From assembly GCA_038998335.1 (NCBI GenBank), contig JAVZHQ010000001.1, forward strand, positions 384,001 through 448,000: a stretch of DNA of 64,000 bases, in the 5' to 3' direction. The position numbers were made by a program, and so were the translations under genes. This stretch comes from Candidatus Aenigmatarchaeota archaeon. Lineage in GTDB: Archaea; Aenigmatarchaeota; Aenigmatarchaeia; CG10238-14; SCSR01. Positions 7,118-31,958 of this stretch are shown here, one piece after another. The first letter of the stretch is position 1. The number at the start of each line of letters is the position of its first letter. Below the pieces are notes generated by a model. That model was given only the letters and a program-made list of their open reading frames with translations, was not told where the DNA came from and did no database searches.

Positions 7118-7214
7118 GCGCCAGTAATCTAACCTGGTAGGATTAACTATACTAATACCAGCTTCCCAAATCTGGAATAAGCTGGGTGTCCGGGTTCAAA
7201 TCCCGGCTGGCGCA
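7118..7214 (+). tRNA. tRNA-Gly(CCC) with two short introns (~7144-7156 and 7169-7179)
   Basis: Acceptor GCGCCAG/CTGGCGC, T arm CCGGG-TTCAAAT-CCCGG, anticodon stem CCAGC/GCTGG; removing 13 + 11 nt gives a 73-nt tRNA. Confidence 0.88.
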
Positions 7215-21023: not shown

Positions 21024-21132
21024 GCTGGGATAGTTCAGCGGTTAGAACGCGGCGCTCATAAGCTTTATGAGCTTTGAAAAAATGATGAAAGATGAAACGC
21101 CGAAGTCCCGGGTTCAAATCCCGGTCCCAGCA
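21024..21132 (+). tRNA. tRNA-Met(CAT), elongator type, with 36-nt anticodon-loop intron
   Basis: Acceptor GCTGGGA/TCCCAGC, anticodon stem CGGCG/CGCCG, CTCATAA loop after removing 36 nt (21061-21096, or 21062-21097 by BHB geometry). Confidence 0.9.
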
Positions 21133-23646: not shown

Positions 23647-25193
<1,547 letters not shown>

Positions 25194-27389: not shown

Positions 27390-27566
27390 TATAAGAAATA
27401 GAAAGTAGAAGAATTTAAACCTTTTGACAAAAAGAGTCGTTAGGTTTCTAACACTTTAGAATTTTTAAACTATAAAGCCTTATCTCATAAGAACAAAGCT
27501 CCTTGAACTTAAAAACTTAAGGATAAAATTTTATCTTCATCTTAACTAAATTAGAAATAATTAATT

Positions 27567-27638
27567 GGGCCGGTAGATCAACGGTAGATCGCCTCGCTTG
27601 CAACGAGGAGGTTCGGGGTTCGAATCCCCGCCGGTCCA
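27567..27638 (+). tRNA. tRNA-Ala(TGC)
   Basis: GGGCCGG/CCGGTCC acceptor with G3:U70; CCTCG-CTTGCAA-CGAGG. Confidence 0.95.
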
Positions 27639-27712
27639 TACTCTTAATAAAAGTTATCGAGAAAATCCAAATGAGTTTAAAAATTTTTATTTTTAGTTGT
27701 AAATTAAATCAA

Positions 27713-28273
27713 ATGGAAGTCCCATCTTGGTATGTAATAACGGGAGAACCTTCTTCTGGTAAGACAACAATTTTAAAAAAATTGGAAGAATTAGGATACT
27801 TTGTTGTTCCAGAGACTGCAAGAATTTTGATAGATAAATATATCAAAAAAAGGTATACCAGCACAAAAATTAAGAAAAAACGAAAGTCGATTTCAAAAAC
27901 AAGTTTTAAAGTTGAAATTAAAAATTGAAGAAACTGTTCCTAAGGATAGAATTGTATTTTTTGACAGAGGTATTCCAGACAGTATAGCCTATTTCAAAAT
28001 TTGTGGGCTAGATACCAAGGAATTAGAAAAATATCAAGAAATAGATATAAAAAAATATTCTTTTTAGAGCAGCTACAATTCCAGCGAGATTATGTAAGAA
28101 TAGAAAATGAAGAAACTGTTAAAAAGTTAAATCAATTACTTCTGGAGACTTACAAAAATTTAGGCTACAACATTGTTCATATCCCAGTTTCTTCGGTTGA
28201 AAAAAGAGTAAGACTTATTTTTATTCAATTTATGATTTATTGGCACGGTATTGAAAAAATGTACAACTACTAA
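27713..28273 (+). pseudogene. AAA_28/NadR-like P-loop kinase with two compensating frameshifts
   Basis: ITGEPSSGKTT...VPETAR; frame shifts at A7 (27845-27851) into FFDRGIPDSIAY, and returns at A5 (28027-28031). Confidence 0.7.
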
Positions 28274-28409
28274 CTTTTTTAAAAAAAGGTTTCTTAACAA
28301 AAGTAAAACAAAAGCTTTAAATAGGATAAAGCTTTTAAATTATAAAAACTAATAAATTAGTTGCCGGTGTCGTTATGTCTGCTTAGCTTGAACATCGGCC
28401 TTTTTGTTT

Positions 28410-28467
28410 AGCTATGAGTTTGCCCTTCTAACTGATAAAAGATGAAGAAATGGGCACCTAACGAGCT
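28410..28467 (+). ncRNA. Box C/D sRNA 1 in 23S leader (D guide to U2552 equivalent)
   Basis: C ATGAGTT, D' CTGA, C' ATGAAGA, D ACGA; TGGGCACCT is antisense to 31499-31507. Confidence 0.8.
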
Positions 28468-28514
28468 TCCTTTGATGCGAATCCTTATTTTGATAATAAG
28501 GGTTTAAGAGTTGA

Positions 28515-28576
28515 GGTTGATGACTTGACTGACAGCGTCTGATAAAAGATGAAGAACGAACTGTCTTTATGAAACC
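28515..28576 (+). ncRNA. Box C/D sRNA 2 in 23S leader (guides to 2504 and 2600 equivalents)
   Basis: GGTT/AACC stem, C ATGACTT, D' CTGA, C' ATGAAGA, D ATGA; guides antisense to 31451-31459 and 31548-31557. Confidence 0.85.
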
Positions 28577-30618
28577 AGAAGATGAAACTACCATAGGATA
28601 AGCTGGTCAAGAGGTCCTGGCAACAGTAGCCCACTTGGTGGATGGCTCGGCTTGGTTAGCCGAAGAAGGCCGTGCCAAGCTGCGATAAGCCTGGGTTATC
28701 CGCATGGAGGAGCTGACCCCAGGATTGCCGAATGGGATTCCTAGCCCGTTAAGGGCTATTTCGGAAGAAAAGGGAACGCGCCGAAGTGAAGCATCTTAGT
28801 AGGCGCAGGAAAAGAAATCAAACGAGATTCGGTGAGTAGGGGCGACCGAAAGCCGAACAGGACAAACCGAACTTTCTTTCGAAGAGGAAGAAAGGATGTG
28901 GAGTTACAGGACTTGGGCCTTTCCTAGCTTGCTAACCTGAAGTGAGCTGGAAAGCTCCACCATAGAGGGTGATAGTCCCGTAGGGGAAGGCAAGAAGGAA
29001 AATGCCAAGTCTCCTGAGTACCATTCCTTGGATATGGAGTGGGAATTTGGGTGGCATTAACATCCAATCCTAAATACTAACCAAGTCCGATAGCGGACTA
29101 GTATCGTGAGAGAAAGCTGAAAAGTACCGCGAAAGCGGGGTGAAAAGAGCCTGAAACCAAGTTGGGCATAGTCAGCTAGGGCATGAAAGGTGCTACTCCG
29201 AAGGAAATTCTCGCAAGAGAAGAGTACGAGGAGTAGCTTACAGTGTCCTAGCATCCGTTCTGAAAAACGGGGCAGGGAGTTTGCTCGAGTAGTGAGGTTA
29301 AGGGGTTTAAACCTCGAAGCCAAAGCGAAAGCGACAAGCCCGTAGTCTCGCAAGAGACGTGGGGCGGGGTGTGAAAGCGCCTGAAATTACTCGAGCAAGA
29401 CCCGAAGCCGGTCGATCTAATCCTGGGCAGGATGAAGTTCCTCGAAAGAGGAATGGAGGTCCGAACCGGTGCTGAGACCCAATCGCTCGGTTGACCCAGG
29501 ATTAGGGGTGAAAAGCCAATCGAGACCGGTGATAGCTGGTTCCTCCCGAAATGAGCGTCAGCTCAGCCTGGTTGGAGGTAAGCAGTAGGGTAAAGAGACT
29601 GATTGGACGGTCAAGGTGCGAAAGCATCAGCCGTCCTGTCAAACTCTGAATCTACTGCTGCCTGAGAAGACCGGAGTGAGGGTACTGGGTTAAGCTCGGT
29701 ACCCAAAAGGGGAACAACCCAACCTGGGGTTAAGATCCCTAAATGCCGGCTAAACGAAGAAGGGAGTCCAAATCCTTAGACAGCGGGGCTGTAGGCTTAG
29801 AAGCAGCCATCAGTTAAAAAGTGCGTAACAGCTTACCCGCCGAGGGTTTGGGCCCTGAAAATGGAAGGGACTAAGCCGGCTGTCGATACCCCAGACCTGC
29901 GAAAGCAGGGGGTAGGGAGGCGTTCTGCATGGGTAGAAGCTTGTTCGTGAGAACAAGTGGACCGTGCAGAATTGAAGATCCTGCCATGAGTAGCAGCATA
30001 GCTGGGTGAAAATCCCAGCCGCCTGAACCCTCAGGGTTTGCCAGCAATGTTCGTCAGCTGGCAGTTAGTCGATCCTAAGGGCGCTCTTAACCGAAGCGCT
30101 CAAAAGGGAAATCGGTTAATATTCCGATACCATGGAGGTACGTGCGGCAACGCAAGCTAGCTTTCCGACGTTTCGGGATAGGCCGACGCAAGTTAACTGC
30201 CGAAGCCTGCAGAGTCTCGTAACGAGGAGAAGCAGGTGAAAGCAGGAATAGCTCCGCGTATGCGGAGTTCGGCCGATTCCTGGAACCCGTGAAAAGGGAA
30301 GCTAGAAGGATCCTCCATGATCGTACCAAGAACCGACACAGGTAGGGTCGCTGAGAAGGCGAAGGCGTGTTGGGAGAACCCAATCCAGGGAAATCGGCAA
30401 ATTGGCCCCGTATCTTCGGTAGAAGGGGTGCCTGTTCTCTCGAAAGGGAGAACAGGTCGCAGTGACAAGGGGGAAGCGACTGTTTAACAAAAACACAGGA
30501 GACTGCTAGTCCGAAAGGATTTGTACAGTCTCTGAGGTCTGCCCAGTGCCGGTGTGTGAAACCCGGTTCCAACCGGGAGAAGCCCCGGCAAACGGCGGCG
30601 GTAACTCTGACCGTCGTA

Positions 30619-30664
30619 ACTCAGGGCGGTCATCTGATTTGATGATACGCCGCCTGGGCGACAT
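30619..30664 (+). ncRNA. 46-nt BHB intron in 23S (E. coli 1927/1928) with D'/C' motif and cis guide
   Basis: GTCG-TA|A-CTCAGG...CCTGGG-CGAC-AT|A; CTGA-T-TTGATGA inside. Confidence 0.9.
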
Positions 30665-30792
30665 AAGTAGCGTAATCCCTTGCCGTTTAATTGACGGCCC
30701 GTTCAACGGCTTAACGACTTCCCCACTGTCCTGGGTTGGGACCCAGCGAAAATGCTGTTCTGGTGAATAGGCCAGAGACCTCCGGTGGGAAA

Positions 30793-30823
<31 letters not shown>

Positions 30824-30976
30824 GCGTTGCTGTAAGGTTGAAATTGCATAGAGTAGCTGGGACTCGCTATTAGGCGCAGGCTTCGGCCGAGGCTGAGAGG
30901 AAAGTGTAACACCAGCCCTTTTCAACCTTACGGCTTACCCGTAAGGGGACAGCGTCAGATGGGCAGTTCGGCTGGG

Positions 30977-31060
30977 AGTTTAGGAGCTAGAATGAAGAGT
31001 CCCTTAAGTTATGAAAAAATGATTAAGGGCATACGGTCTGAACAGCTCCTAAACCAGCAA
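30977..31060 (+). ncRNA. 84-nt BHB intron in the 23S P-loop (2252/2253) containing a complete box C/D sRNA
   Basis: GCTG-GG|A-GTTTAGGAGCT...AGCTCCTAAAC-CAGC-AA|G; splicing restores GGCTGGGGCGG. Confidence 0.93.
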
Positions 31061-31115
31061 GCGGTACGCCCTTGGTAAGAGATCAAGGGCGCCCAAAGCT
31101 CAGCTCATCCGGGTC

Positions 31116-31212
31116 ATGTCAGAAGTTGAAGCTATGATTACACTGCTCCAGAATGATTTAAAGATGAGTATGGAGGTAGCTTATGAGCTTTCATCAACTT
31201 CTGACACCCGAA
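31116..31212 (+). ncRNA. 97-nt BHB intron in 23S (about 2306/2307) containing a complete box C/D sRNA
   Basis: CGGG-TC|A-TGTCAGAAGTTGA...TCAACTTCTGACA-CCCG-AA|A; splicing restores CGGGTCAGAAATCC. Confidence 0.92.
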
Positions 31213-31384
31213 AGAAATCCGGAGTAGAGTGTAAGCGCAAAAGCTGGGTTGATTGGATCCCGCAAAGCGAGGGATCCAAGGGCGAAAGCCTGGGCTAGCG
31301 ATACATCGGTTCGCCTTAATGGCGGCCGGTGGTATCAGAAAAGCTACCTCGGGGATAATGGGCCCGTGGCCGGTGAAAGCCCAC

Positions 31385-31427
31385 AGCTCAGGGGTTTTCA
31401 TCCCACTCGATAGCGACGAGCGGGTAA
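31385..31427 (+). ncRNA. 43-nt BHB intron in 23S (about 2477/2478)
   Basis: GCCC-AC|A-GCTC...GAGC-GGGT-AA|A; splicing restores AGCCCACATTGACCC. Confidence 0.88.
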
Positions 31428-31526
31428 ATTGACCCGGCGCGTTGGTGCGTCGCTGTCGGCTCCCCCCCTCCTGGCCGTGCAGTAGCGGCCAAGGGTACAG
31501 GTGCCCACTGGTTAAAGGGGGACGTT

Positions 31527-31560
<34 letters not shown>

Positions 31561-31958
31561 GCTATCTACCGGAGGTGCTGGCTGTCTGACCGGAAGGATG
31601 GGTGAGTACGAAAGGAACACCCATCCGTGGCCTCTGGTCTACCGGTTGTTCATCGCACAGCCGGGCAGCTAAGCCATAGCGGATAAGTCCTGAAGGCATC
31701 TAAGGACGAAACCGCCCGGGAAAATAGGCAGCCAATTGCTCTGCTATTCCGCAAGGAACGGTAGAGCAACGAGGGCTCTCCTAGACGAGGAGGTTGATAG
31801 GAAGGGGGTGTACGCGCCAAGCTTTCGAGCGAGGCGTTCAGCCCGCCTTTCCTAATCGCCCGAGGTTGCCAGGACTTGATAAGCAGCTTATCCTATGGTA
31901 GTTTCAAAAGTTTTTTTCTAAAATAAAAAAGTTAAACTTTTTTTTCTTAATTTAATTT

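Follow-up and report, generated by a model that had tools for sequence, protein, structure and literature searches.

Several routes to a methylated A loop in large-subunit rRNA have been described. The A-loop sequence UGUUC is near-universal, and in yeast the guide RNA snR52 specifies methylation of the U2552 equivalent while Spb1, a protein enzyme, acts on the neighboring G. A guide-RNA route is given as one of three ways to Um2552 (PMC12123411), and in five of the species they studied, Dennis et al. 2015 (PMC4644070) predicted that the A loop is methylated at its first nucleotide by way of a guide. A C/D sRNA of halophiles and other euryarchaea acts in cis from a tRNA-Trp intron (d'Orval et al. 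2001, cited in PMC7994747), and the contexts given for archaeal C/D sRNAs in PMC7994747 and PMC6009581 are overlaps with ORFs, clusters of sRNAs, tRNA-sRNA dicistrons, and tRNA introns.

The locus considered here belongs to a small-genome DPANN-type archaeon (1.0-Mb genome, 90.4% complete) and lies in a window of 64,000 nt, the whole stretch of DNA that was analyzed, whose coordinates are used throughout; all features are on the plus strand. We put at roughly 0.8 the probability that the leader of its 23S rRNA carries two real box C/D guide RNAs, sRNA1 and sRNA2, for 2'-O-methylation in domain V, cotranscribed with their target. Most likely they serve to guide the methylation of riboses in the catalytic center of the ribosome.

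The 23S transcription unit

The 23S rRNA gene (28614..31875; Rfam RF02540, 2633.5 bits) is present in a single copy that is not linked to the 16S gene. Two TATA-like elements, CTTTAAATA and TTTTAAATTATA (28315..28344), read from the sequence as the putative promoter of a stand-alone 23S unit with an inferred start site; in relatives, similar TTTATAAATA/TTTAAATA elements lie ~25 nt upstream of the conserved block of the leader. A conserved 5' hairpin (CCGGTG ... CATCGG, 28363..28400, paired by eye) stands at the inferred leader start and is kept in several genera. A second conserved hairpin, with conserved flanks, lies between sRNA1 and sRNA2 (28474..28515; stem 28481-89 / 28496-28504); a reading of it as a kink-turn, made by eye, was rejected for want of consistent G.A geometry.

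Downstream of sRNA2, the leader strand of a processing stem (28584..28624) consists of an outer helix (28584-28605), a central GTCA (28606-09), the bulge AGA (28610-12), and an inner helix (28613-24). It is a self-complementary match to 31865-31906, where the trailer strand (31865..31905) supplies an inner helix (31865-76), a central TGAT (31877-80), the bulge AAG (31881-83), and an outer helix (31884-31905). The bulge-helix-bulge geometry is 3-4-3, with two 3-nt bulges on opposite strands, 4 bp apart. Metatranscriptome contigs join 31882 to 28612, the junction of a circular pre-23S RNA, and mark cuts between 28611 and 28612 and between 31882 and 31883; the depth of the junction contig is 1814 in run X1 and 341 in run X2. 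Leader RNA is also represented in X1 by a 170-nt contig (28439-28608, depth 3.66, with zero depth at 28250-28438), in a library that may contain some DNA and in the form of contigs, which cannot reveal RNA ends or size. The matches of runs X3 and X4 were confined to the conserved ~28659-28691 and to further segments of the 23S gene and contained many differences; they come from other organisms, and X3 and X4 therefore provide no evidence. The initial annotation had placed both sRNAs between the putative promoter and the processing stem, and this order proved to be right, with the RNA contigs revealing the bulge-helix-bulge cuts.

Anatomy of sRNA1 and sRNA2

The first element, sRNA1 (28410..28467, 58 nt), scores 78 bits with our model R1 and displays covariation in its kink-turn and stem. 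Between the stem halves AGC (28410-12) and GCT (28465-67) it contains a C box region, TATGAGT (28413-19, with GA at 28416-17), a D' guide (28420-31), a D' box, CTGA (28432-35), a C' box, GATGAAGA (28441-48), a D guide, AATGGGCACCTA (28449-60), and a D box, ACGA (28461-64). The C-D' and C'-D spacers are each 12 nt, and the D'-C' loop is 5 nt. The second element, sRNA2 (28515..28576, 62 nt, 34 homologues), is built in the same order from the stem halves GGTT (28515-18) and AACC (28573-76), GATGA (28519-23), a D' guide (28524-38), a D' box, CTGA (28539-42), a C' box (28548-55), a D guide (28556-68), and a D box, ATGA (28569-72); its spacers are 15 and 13 nt, the 15-nt D' spacer being above the usual.

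In spacers, total length, and short terminal stem, both elements fit C/D sRNAs (spacers of ~12 nt, ~50-70 nt overall), and their terminal C and D boxes are able to form a kink-turn with tandem G.A pairs. Both also share the internal D'/loop/C' segment CTGA-TAAAA-GATGAAGA, a kink-loop that is kept in relatives. In the relatives' set, the GA dinucleotides of sRNA1 are present in 22/22 C boxes and 20/22 D boxes, and UA replaces the D-box GA in six relatives. Outside GA the boxes of sRNA1 and sRNA2 depart from consensus and are therefore variant boxes; in sRNA1 they read AUGAGU and ACGA, against RUGAUGA/CUGA. No Rfam C/D family reached its gathering threshold, the best (SNORD5, sR5, sR30, and sR38) scoring 9.5-14.3 bits (E 5.5-7.8).

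Predicted targets in this genome

Three of the four guides have predicted targets in domain V, each opposite the fifth residue upstream of the D or D' box. The sRNA1 D guide forms 9 Watson-Crick pairs with the A loop of helix 92 (31499..31507; N+5 = U31502, E. coli U2552). The sRNA2 D guide forms 10 Watson-Crick pairs and 1 G.U pair with 31547..31557 (N+5 = A31550, A2600), and the sRNA2 D' guide forms 7 Watson-Crick pairs, a G.U pair, and 1 further Watson-Crick pair with 31451..31459 (N+5 = U31454, U2504). E. coli positions come from alignment to a 23S copy of 2901 nt, whose numbers we take to be 2 lower at these sites than in the standard numbering; in this alignment, the N+5 sites are the A-loop U, the U after 2503, and the A that precedes A2602 by two nucleotides. 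The A loop here reads UGCCC and not UGUUC, and the 2503 equivalent is C31453. It had been proposed that the sRNA1 D guide complements this unusual loop, and the complementarity holds, also in relatives whose loops read UGUCC or UGUUC.

The fourth guide fared differently. A site for the sRNA1 D' guide had been tentatively proposed at 30420-30427 (8 Watson-Crick pairs, N+5 = A30423), and we discarded it: 1545/5000 shuffles did as well, which is chance level, and the guide is not conserved, relatives with an identical site having unrelated D' guides.

The same test, 5000 shuffles per guide against the 23S and 16S rRNAs of this genome alone, reached 9 bp in 238/5000 shuffles for the sRNA1 D guide and 10 bp in 62/5000 for the sRNA2 D guide, and equaled the sRNA2 D' guide (a Watson-Crick run of 7) in 3184/5000. 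The duplexes are short, 9 bp at U2552 and 7 Watson-Crick pairs at U2504. Because two guides gave 238/5000 and 62/5000 and the other two were nonsignificant, the single-genome evidence is modest; the above-chance status that we assign to the guides is owed to the comparative data and not to the single genome. These counts also speak for a chance resemblance, in which an AT-rich leader happens to hold TGA/GA motifs and to match rRNA over short runs. We regard such a coincidence as extremely improbable, and it is already contradicted by comparative data, namely, conservation across families together with covariation. Moreover, a box/stem descriptor run over the whole genome found 4 places versus 1 in a reversed control, and 3 of the 4 are sRNA1, sRNA2, and a third element inside the 23S gene.

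Conservation and covariation across the order

The leader aligns by BLAST across different genera and families, and among 23 leaders of 23S genes the U2552 guide is present in 22 and the A2600 guide in 21. Model R1, which bears the guide, matched 48 of the 118 genomes of the order, almost always once per genome, and had 0 matches in ~100 genomes outside it; a record labelled Candidatus Aenigmatarchaeota was matched at 62.5 bits. An exact-pattern scan of genome contigs returned mostly chance matches in bacterial genes. Genus g6 has no recognizable sRNA1 (R1 matched 0/11 genomes, and none was recognized in G010 in the 23-leader set); a search for a displaced copy in g6 with a short degenerate pattern gave counts equal to those of the reversed-pattern control.

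The folds themselves covary. For sRNA1, the covariation score was 0.306 versus 0.179 in shuffles, 0/500 of which scored as high (12 distinct rows); 78.3% of cells were paired, versus 10-38% with the partners slid, and the two pairs after the G.A pairs covary. For sRNA2, GA/GA is invariant in 34/34 genomes, the position 6-D1 pair is UA in 27 and AU in 7, and the first three stem pairs are canonical in 34/34 with several pair types. In family f4, a single fused sRNA has the A2600 guide in the D' position and the U2552 guide in the D position in 7/7 genomes seen, with the same N+5 targets. Order-wide conservation, covariation of kink-turn and stem, co-variation of guide and A loop, and this fused form together support the initial annotation's reading of tandem box C/D sRNAs in the 23S leader directed at the peptidyl-transferase center.

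The register of the guides is informative as well. In 42/43 leaders, twenty of them selected with R1, the U2552 guide is followed at a constant distance by GA (36) or UA (6). For A2600, 29/34 separate sRNA2 copies and 7/7 fused sRNAs retain the register, which is shifted by one nucleotide in 5/34 separate copies. The core of the sRNA2 D' guide, GACAGCG, is shared by 9 genomes, each of which has C at 2503. Of the two sites originally predicted for sRNA2, A31550 (A2600) is supported; U31454 (U2504) is an assignment of intermediate standing.

The A loop offers a further comparison. At the variable positions 2554/2555, guide and loop pair in 36/39 genomes, in the states CC/GG, UC/AG, and UU/AA, the last being that of genus g13; G014, read by eye, fits the covariation too. 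A tree built from the first 1000 nt of the 23S gene shows at least 8 changes in the A loop and 7 in the guide. In genus g20, three genomes have an A.C mismatch that lies two positions away from the target and is not compensated, and a sign test on independent pairs (2-3 well-supported contrasts, p 0.25-0.5) was not significant. With its 9 Watson-Crick pairs here and this co-variation in 36/39 genomes, the original assignment of the sRNA1 D guide to 31499-31507, with U31502 (U2552) as the predicted site, stands.

These data bear on two other functional readings. The conserved motifs could be kink-turns that bind L7Ae and thereby help to process or stabilize the leader, with incidental complementarity to 23S rRNA; L7Ae does bind many kink-turns, conserved leader hairpins without an antisense match also exist, and the sRNA1 D' guide lacks a conserved target. 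We find this very hard to credit, given that the guide segments are the best-conserved parts, that they change jointly with the A loop, and that in family f4 they survive a change of context from D to D'. Somewhat less improbable, though still unlikely, is that the C/D-like modules are cis-acting assembly chaperones only, which would pair with the A-loop, 2500, and 2600 strands of the nascent 23S rRNA and either hold these open or set the order in which they fold, as U3-type snoRNAs do, methylation not being the selected function. Such a role would suit targets that all lie in one functional center of the same transcript, degenerate boxes, an A2600 register that is off by one nucleotide in 5/34 copies, and the tolerance of genus g20 for a mismatch near the target. 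A purely antisense role does not, however, need a fixed distance from guide to D box, and that distance is the same in 42/42 U2552 guides found and, for the third element, in 22/22.

A third element inside the 23S gene

The third C/D element (31118..31205; R1 17.8 bits, E 0.029) is located at the tip of an insertion of 98 nt (31109-31206) relative to E. coli 23S rRNA. A closing stem (31118-29 / 31194-31205) and a stem AGC 31130-32 / GCT 31187-89 enclose a C box, TATGATT, a D' box, ATGA (31153-56), a C' box, GATGAGT (31163-69), and a D box, ATGA (31183-86). Its D guide (31170-82) can form 10 Watson-Crick pairs with 31341..31350, for which N+5 = U31345 (E. coli U2438) is the predicted site. The element was found in 22/30 relatives scanned, all with the same guide-to-D-box distance, and in G007 there is a compensatory change between guide and target. 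Candidate targets for its D' guide were rejected, with at most 7 Watson-Crick pairs in rRNA and, genome-wide, 9-11-mers in coding DNA or in the element itself. If real, a C/D module in the body of an rRNA would mean that an rRNA insertion has been put to a new use.

The genome also holds a tRNA-intron C/D candidate; the Rfam tRNA model found a tRNA around it, and ARAGORN reported none.

Proteins and a possible mechanism

Fibrillarin (281.9 bits), Nop5 (230.3 bits), and L7Ae (109.3 bits) are all encoded in the genome. A check for an RlmE homologue, suggested in the initial annotation, found none in this genome or in 40 relatives (TIGR00438 at most 26.1 bits in the 41 genomes); because the genome is only 90.4% complete, absence is not proven. 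The FtsJ matches of the genome are Methyltransf_11/25 and RsmB, and SpoU_methylase (PF00588) had no match. Genus g6 is likewise without RlmE. Retention of fibrillarin in a 1.0-Mb genome speaks against the chaperone-only role, as does the methylation of U2552 in all three domains, as given in PMC12123411; another enzyme for it was not found here.

On the guide RNA reading, each sRNA would adopt an internal C'/D' kink-loop and a terminal kink-turn whose variant C/D boxes retain the tandem G.A pairs, and would be bound by L7Ae, Nop5, and fibrillarin. Being encoded in the 23S leader, sRNA1 and sRNA2 would share a transcript with the nascent domain V, their target, with which they would pair. Fibrillarin would then 2'-O-methylate the nucleotide opposite guide position 5, at U31502 (U2552) via sRNA1 and at A31550 (A2600) and probably U31454 (U2504) via sRNA2. 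Splicing endonuclease would cut the bulge-helix-bulge stem, releasing the circular pre-23S RNA and freeing the sRNA-bearing leader, and the guides may act before or after that release. In this lineage, the guide would replace the missing stand-alone A-loop methyltransferase RlmE.

A bolder extension, which we offer tentatively and consider doubtful, is that the 23S precursor of this order is self-guiding, with a full guide set for the peptidyl-transferase center in cis that would act intramolecularly and cotranscriptionally. The leader guides would be two or one fused, and the third, in the rRNA body (a helix expansion near E. coli 2300), may stay in the mature ribosome with L7Ae, Nop5, and fibrillarin. 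On this reading, all C/D guides detected in these reduced genomes (4/4 descriptor matches) would lie within stable-RNA genes and not be free genes.

Few rRNA modifications are, like Um2552, retained by all three domains, and a 1-Mb genome without a recognizable RlmE appears to keep it by a guide wired into the 23S unit. Leader placement would yield one guide per rRNA, adjoining its target. The lineage may also be regarded as a natural experiment, in which the A loop leaves UGUUC and the guide follows, offering a way to study the coevolution of a guide and a nearly invariant catalytic-center sequence. Degenerate-box C/D sRNAs may thus be findable in DPANN genomes by way of rRNA leaders, rRNA insertions, and tRNA introns.

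Comparison with known systems

The protein-only enzymes RlmE (FtsJ/RrmJ) and RlmR have the same predicted product, Um2552, and no homologue was found here. Yeast snR52, unlike the leader sRNAs, is a eukaryotic snoRNA that is encoded away from the rDNA and acts in trans.

The archaeal U2552 C/D sRNAs share with sRNA1 the RNP logic, the N+5 rule, and the target, but here the guide lies in the leader of its own target 23S gene, with degenerate boxes, a DPANN-type host, and a noncanonical, co-varying A loop. In the tRNA-Trp intron sRNA, the guide is likewise part of its target's precursor and is freed by splicing endonuclease at a bulge-helix-bulge, whereas the host here is a pre-rRNA leader plus an rRNA insertion and the targets lie ~3 kb downstream. 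Polycistronic and tRNA-linked archaeal C/D sRNAs resemble the present ones in lacking their own promoter and maturing from a longer precursor; rRNA leaders and insertions are absent from the lists of contexts in the passages of PMC7994747 and PMC6009581 consulted, and in the literature searched we found none that describes C/D sRNAs in the leader or an insertion of an archaeal rRNA. Guided formation of Um2552 is thus already known, and what appears to be new is a guide that lies in cis, in the same transcript as its target.

Tandem box C/D sRNAs in the 23S leader

The source genome is archaeal (1.01 Mb, 33% G+C, 9 contigs, 90.4% complete). Rfam places its 16S gene at 23647-25193 and its 23S gene at 28614-31875, and the interval between them holds three minus-strand ORFs, a tRNA-Ala gene (27566-27639), and short plus-strand ORFs that look broken, so the 23S gene needs a promoter of its own; TATA-like elements can be read in the sequence at 28315-28344. 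Three short overlapping plus-strand ORFs at 27671-28273, between the tRNA-Ala gene and the 23S promoter, look like one kinase- or ATPase-type gene split by frameshifts, the first bearing a P-loop-like GEPSSGKTT motif.

The leader contains two units, sRNA1 (28410-28467) and sRNA2 (28515-28576), that are nearly identical in plan. Each opens with a 5' stem strand (AGC at 28410-12 in sRNA1, GGTT at 28515-18 in sRNA2), followed by a three-nucleotide bulge (TAT and GAT, respectively), the GA of box C (28416-17 and 28522-23), two further nucleotides (GT and CT), and a D' guide of 12 or 15 nt. Both then share the D' box CTGA, the D'-C' loop TAAAA, and the C' box GATGAAGA. The D guide comes next (12 nt, AATGGGCACCTA, in sRNA1; 13 nt in sRNA2), and after it the D box (ACGA and ATGA) and the 3' stem strand (GCT and AACC). 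Neither sRNA matches a curated Rfam family.

The sRNA1 D guide is predicted to form 9 Watson-Crick pairs with 31499-31507, which puts U31502 opposite guide position 5 (N+5), and the sRNA2 D guide 10 such pairs plus a G.U with 31547-31557 (N+5 = A31550). Of the D' guides, that of sRNA2 would make 7 Watson-Crick pairs, a G.U, and one further pair with 31451-31459 (N+5 = U31454), and that of sRNA1 has an 8-pair candidate site at 30420-30427. Aligning the region to one E. coli 23S copy (2901 nt) made U31502 the A loop's first nucleotide, as initially annotated, U31454 the nucleotide just after position 2503, and A31550 the one two nucleotides ahead of the bulged A in the ACAG motif. Numbering in that copy is lower than the standard by 2 (by 3 at one point); from landmarks of the standard numbering, we take the three nucleotides to be U2552, U2504, and A2600. 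The A loop here reads UGCCC, not UGUUC (31504-31505), and position 2503 is C (31453).

With 5,000 shuffles per guide against the 23S and 16S of this genome, a match as long as the observed one arose 238 times for the sRNA1 D guide (9 bp), 62 times for the sRNA2 D guide (10 bp), 1,545 times for the sRNA1 D' guide (8 bp), and 3,184 times for the sRNA2 D' guide (7-bp Watson-Crick run). Taken alone, this genome therefore gives suggestive evidence for the two D guides and none for the two D' guides.

Conservation and register of the guides

When 41 genomes of the order were searched by BLAST with the leader and the 23S 5' end as query, 24 had the locus, the source genome included, with alignments extending into the leader for several genera and other families. 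Among 23 leaders, each taken as the 400 nt upstream of a 23S start, the U2552 guide motif occurs in 22 (exception, G010) and the A2600 guide in 21 (exceptions, G028 and G033). A covariance model built on sRNA1 matched 48 of 118 genomes of the order, almost always once per genome (27/69 in family f1, 12/23 in f4, 7/19 in f5, and 1/1 in f6); non-matches are not to be equated with absences, as many scanned genomes are without an assembled 23S. In a phylum-wide sample of 151 genomes, the same model, which includes the lineage-specific guide and is blind to any version aimed at a canonical A loop, matched 27, every one in f1, f4, f5, or f6, and none in families f8-f29. Public Candidatus Aenigmatarchaeota records share the leader motif, and the model matches one of them at 62.5 bits.

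The register of the guides is also kept. In 42 of 43 leaders examined, two nucleotides separate the U2552 guide from a four-nucleotide D box (ending GA in 36 genomes and UA in 6), a count in which the informative item is the single leader that fails, given that the search pattern itself demanded the spacing. Of the 34 separate copies of sRNA2, 29 preserve the distance between the A2600 guide and the D box; the guide is one nucleotide closer in G010, G020, and G029 and one farther in G014 and G016. Family f4 has a single leader sRNA, with the A2600 guide ahead of D' and the U2552 guide ahead of D, and this fused form retains the same N+5 nucleotides in 7/7 genomes (G027, G032, G037, G039, G052, G053, and G054). 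Such persistence of the guides in a different box context is difficult to account for unless they act as guides.

The D' guides behave differently from each other. The sRNA2 D' core GACAGCG lies directly upstream of D' in G001, G012, G019, G020, G060, and G102 as in the source genome (G000); G103 carries it displaced by one position, and in G006 it is GTCAGCG. In other genera the D' sequences are unrelated. Position 2503 is C in all of these nine genomes for which the region was obtained (all but G006 and G020). Within this group of genomes, U2504 is a probable target of the guide. The sRNA1 D' guide, by contrast, lacks conservation, and the site at 30420-30427, offered tentatively as its target, is given up; G060 and G097 share the identical site but bear unrelated D' guides, and chance is the best explanation for the 8-bp match.

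Variation at the base of each unit follows the pairing. Across 22 sRNA1 copies, the first pair beside the tandem G.A is G-C, G.U, A-U, U-A, or U.U, the second is C-G, U-A, A-U, or G-C, and the terminal stem appears as AGC/GCU, GGC/GCC, GCC/GGC, GAC/GUC, or UGC/GCA. Pairs were counted on a MAFFT alignment of 13 rows (12 distinct), 9 of the 22 copies being left out: four fused f4 sRNAs that MAFFT misaligned, G008 and G014 with long internal insertions, and G007, G028, and G033. Paired cells made up 78.3% versus 71.3% in shuffles and the covariation score was 0.306 versus 0.179, neither value being reached in 500 shuffles, and sliding the 3' partners by 1-3 columns left 10-38% paired. Among the 34 copies of sRNA2, GA/GA never varies, position 6 and D1 form U-A in 27 and A-U in 7, and the first three pairs of the stem take several forms, canonical in every copy. 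These patterns are characteristic of a kink-turn that carries a terminal stem.

Co-variation of the U2552 guide with the A loop

The peptidyl transferase center of the whole order departs from the near-universal sequence: position 2503 is C, or U in some genera, or A in genus g24, and the A loop is UGCCC or UGUCC, with UGUUC in genus g13 only. A loops were collected from domain V loci and from 20 additional 7-kb stretches lying downstream of covariance-model matches, the latter counted for co-variation and not for presence. Guide and loop pair at both variable positions, 2554 and 2555, in 36 of the 39 genomes with both sequences, bearing out the initial observation that the sRNA1 D guide complements the unusual loop. 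The paired states are, for loop and guide respectively, CC and GG, UC and AG, and, in G017 and G089 of genus g13, UU and AA. In G109 and G110, the G-C opposite 2553 is replaced by G.U, and in G014, a ~40-nt insertion directly after the A loop hid the loop from the search pattern, but it also fits when read by eye. In all three exceptions (G024, G093, and G097), which belong to genus g20, an A in the guide faces a C in the loop, and this A.C is uncompensated.

A quick maximum-likelihood tree was built on the first 1,000 nt of 23S; its deep forks are poorly resolved. On this tree, the loop changes state at least 8 times and the guide 7 times (6 and 5 without four long-branch rows). The starred branches hold only 2-3 independent contrasts, all in the same direction, and the sign test is not significant (p 0.25-0.5). 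As a pattern, then, the co-variation is strong, although few secure events underlie it.

C/D-like elements elsewhere and other inserts

The sRNA1 model also gave a weak match within the 23S gene (31126-31194, 17.8 bits, E 0.029). It marks a third, C/D-like element (31118-31205), closed by a stem of 12 bp and located at the tip of an insertion that spans 98 nt (31109-31206) relative to E. coli. Its plan is that of sRNA1: AGC, TAT, GA, TT, guide, ATGA, loop, GATGAGT, guide, ATGA, GCT. The D guide of this element is predicted to form 10 Watson-Crick pairs with 31341-31350, 150 nt downstream, with U31345, aligned to E. coli U2438, at N+5. In a scan of 42 genomes, of which 30 yielded the target region, the element was found in 22/30 with a constant guide-to-D-box spacing; its guide makes 9-10 continuous pairs in 14 and has one mismatch, at position 8, in 8 (genera g10, g12, g13, and g31). 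In G007, an A for G in the target is matched by a U for C in the guide, a compensatory change, and the G013 copy has a canonical CTGA D box. The element is also present in G015 and G025, and a short hairpin takes its place in G019, G023, G027, and G032. For its conserved D' guide, no target was found. With a single 3-nt bulge seen at the base, the element does not resemble a bulge-helix-bulge intron.

A genome-wide box-and-stem descriptor, modelled on the elements described here and hence biased towards them, hit 4 places versus 1 in a reversed control: sRNA1, sRNA2, the element in 23S, and C1:281272-281329. The last is in a tRNA intron, within a 145-nt match to the full Rfam tRNA model (42.3 bits; G000:C1:281226-281370; extracted locus L274:127-271, minus strand). 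This ~60-nt intron has a C/D plan (AATGA, CTGA, ATGATGA, and a D box ending GA), with no clear target in cis; ARAGORN, run without intron handling, reported nothing at the locus. Two other Rfam tRNA matches not reported by ARAGORN, at 7118-7214 (97 nt) and 21024-21132 (109 nt), are likely intron-bearing tRNA genes.

Other rRNA insertions were seen. In the 16S gene, 78 nt (24383-24460) split the universal GGATTAGATACCC...GTAGTCC region; this insertion occurs in about 10 relatives (e.g., G001, G024, G038, G040, and G010) and is cleanly absent, as for a small intron, in about 12 (e.g., G007, G016, G017, and G032). Its hairpin holds the CTGATAAAAGATGAAGA core common to sRNA1 and sRNA2, without a terminal C/D pair. 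In the domain V loci of many relatives (L037-L066), the 23S match is broken at a few recurrent positions, corresponding to 31369, 31484-87, 31534/35, and 31548 by inserts of ~90 nt to >900 nt, one of which, in G039, looks protein-coding. These inserts, including that after the A loop of G014, are probably introns.

Leader RNA and the circular pre-23S junction

Parts of the window are present in three metatranscriptome runs. One run (X1), compared over 28250-28850, supplied one 170-nt contig (28439-28608, depth 3.66) that differs at two positions, in both as the sister genome G001 does, and had zero depth at 28250-28438. Contigs from X1 (depth 1,814) and a second run, X2 (depth 341), join the 23S 3' end, up to 31882, to the sequence beginning at 28612. 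This is a circular pre-23S junction, and it falls exactly within both 3-nt bulges of a bulge-helix-bulge motif read beforehand from the sequence. The leader strand of that motif consists of a helix (28584-28605), GTCA, the bulge AGA (28610-12), and a second helix (28613-24); the trailer strand consists of a helix (31865-76), TGAT, the bulge AAG (31881-83), and a helix (31884-31905). A junction at 28612 means that the leader is cut off at 28611, and both sRNAs lie between the putative promoter and the processing stem, as the initial annotation had it. Leader depth is about one five-hundredth of that of the rRNA body, in an RNA library that may include some DNA, and the contigs do not reveal RNA ends.

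Protein partners and comparison with known systems

Genes for Nop5 (230.3 bits) and fibrillarin (281.9 bits) are adjacent at C1:769150-770470, and an L7Ae gene is present (109.3 bits). A check for an RlmE homolog, proposed at the outset, found none: the FtsJ family yields five partial matches of 19-27 bits, four of them assigned by Pfam to Methyltransf_11/25 or RsmB/F and the fifth inside the fibrillarin gene, and TIGR00438 (RlmE) reaches at most 26.1 bits across 41 genomes of the order, none above the cut-off. SpoU_methylase likewise gave no match, with the control positive in 14/14 named genomes. No protein-only route to Um2552 was therefore recognized in this genome, whose 90% completeness leaves room for a missed gene.

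In genus g6, the sRNA1 model matches 0/11 genomes (G010 and 10 others), and the G010 leader is also without sRNA1. The genus has sRNA2 and the element within 23S, an A loop of UGUCC, and a negative RlmE search.

By every feature testable in sequence, sRNA1 and sRNA2 are box C/D sRNAs, as first annotated, with variant boxes. We infer protein binding, methylation of the targets, and the timing of sRNA action relative to release.

Guide-RNA-directed formation of Um2552 as such is already known. It was predicted in five archaeal species by Dennis et al. (2015, PMC4644070), and a 2025 paper (PMC12123411) sets a guide-RNA route beside RlmE-type and SPOUT-type enzymes. Searches of open full-text literature turned up no C/D sRNAs described from archaeal rRNA leaders, archaeal rRNA insertions, or DPANN rRNA operons, and passages from PMC6009581 and PMC3608112 contain nothing further on rRNA leaders. 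The gene contexts given in a review of archaeal C/D sRNAs (PMC7994747, section 9) are ORF overlaps, clusters, tRNA-sRNA dicistrons, and tRNA introns that act in cis. The sRNAs described here differ from these in lying within a 23S leader, and such a location, in cis and in the leader of the gene that they are predicted to target, appears to be new.
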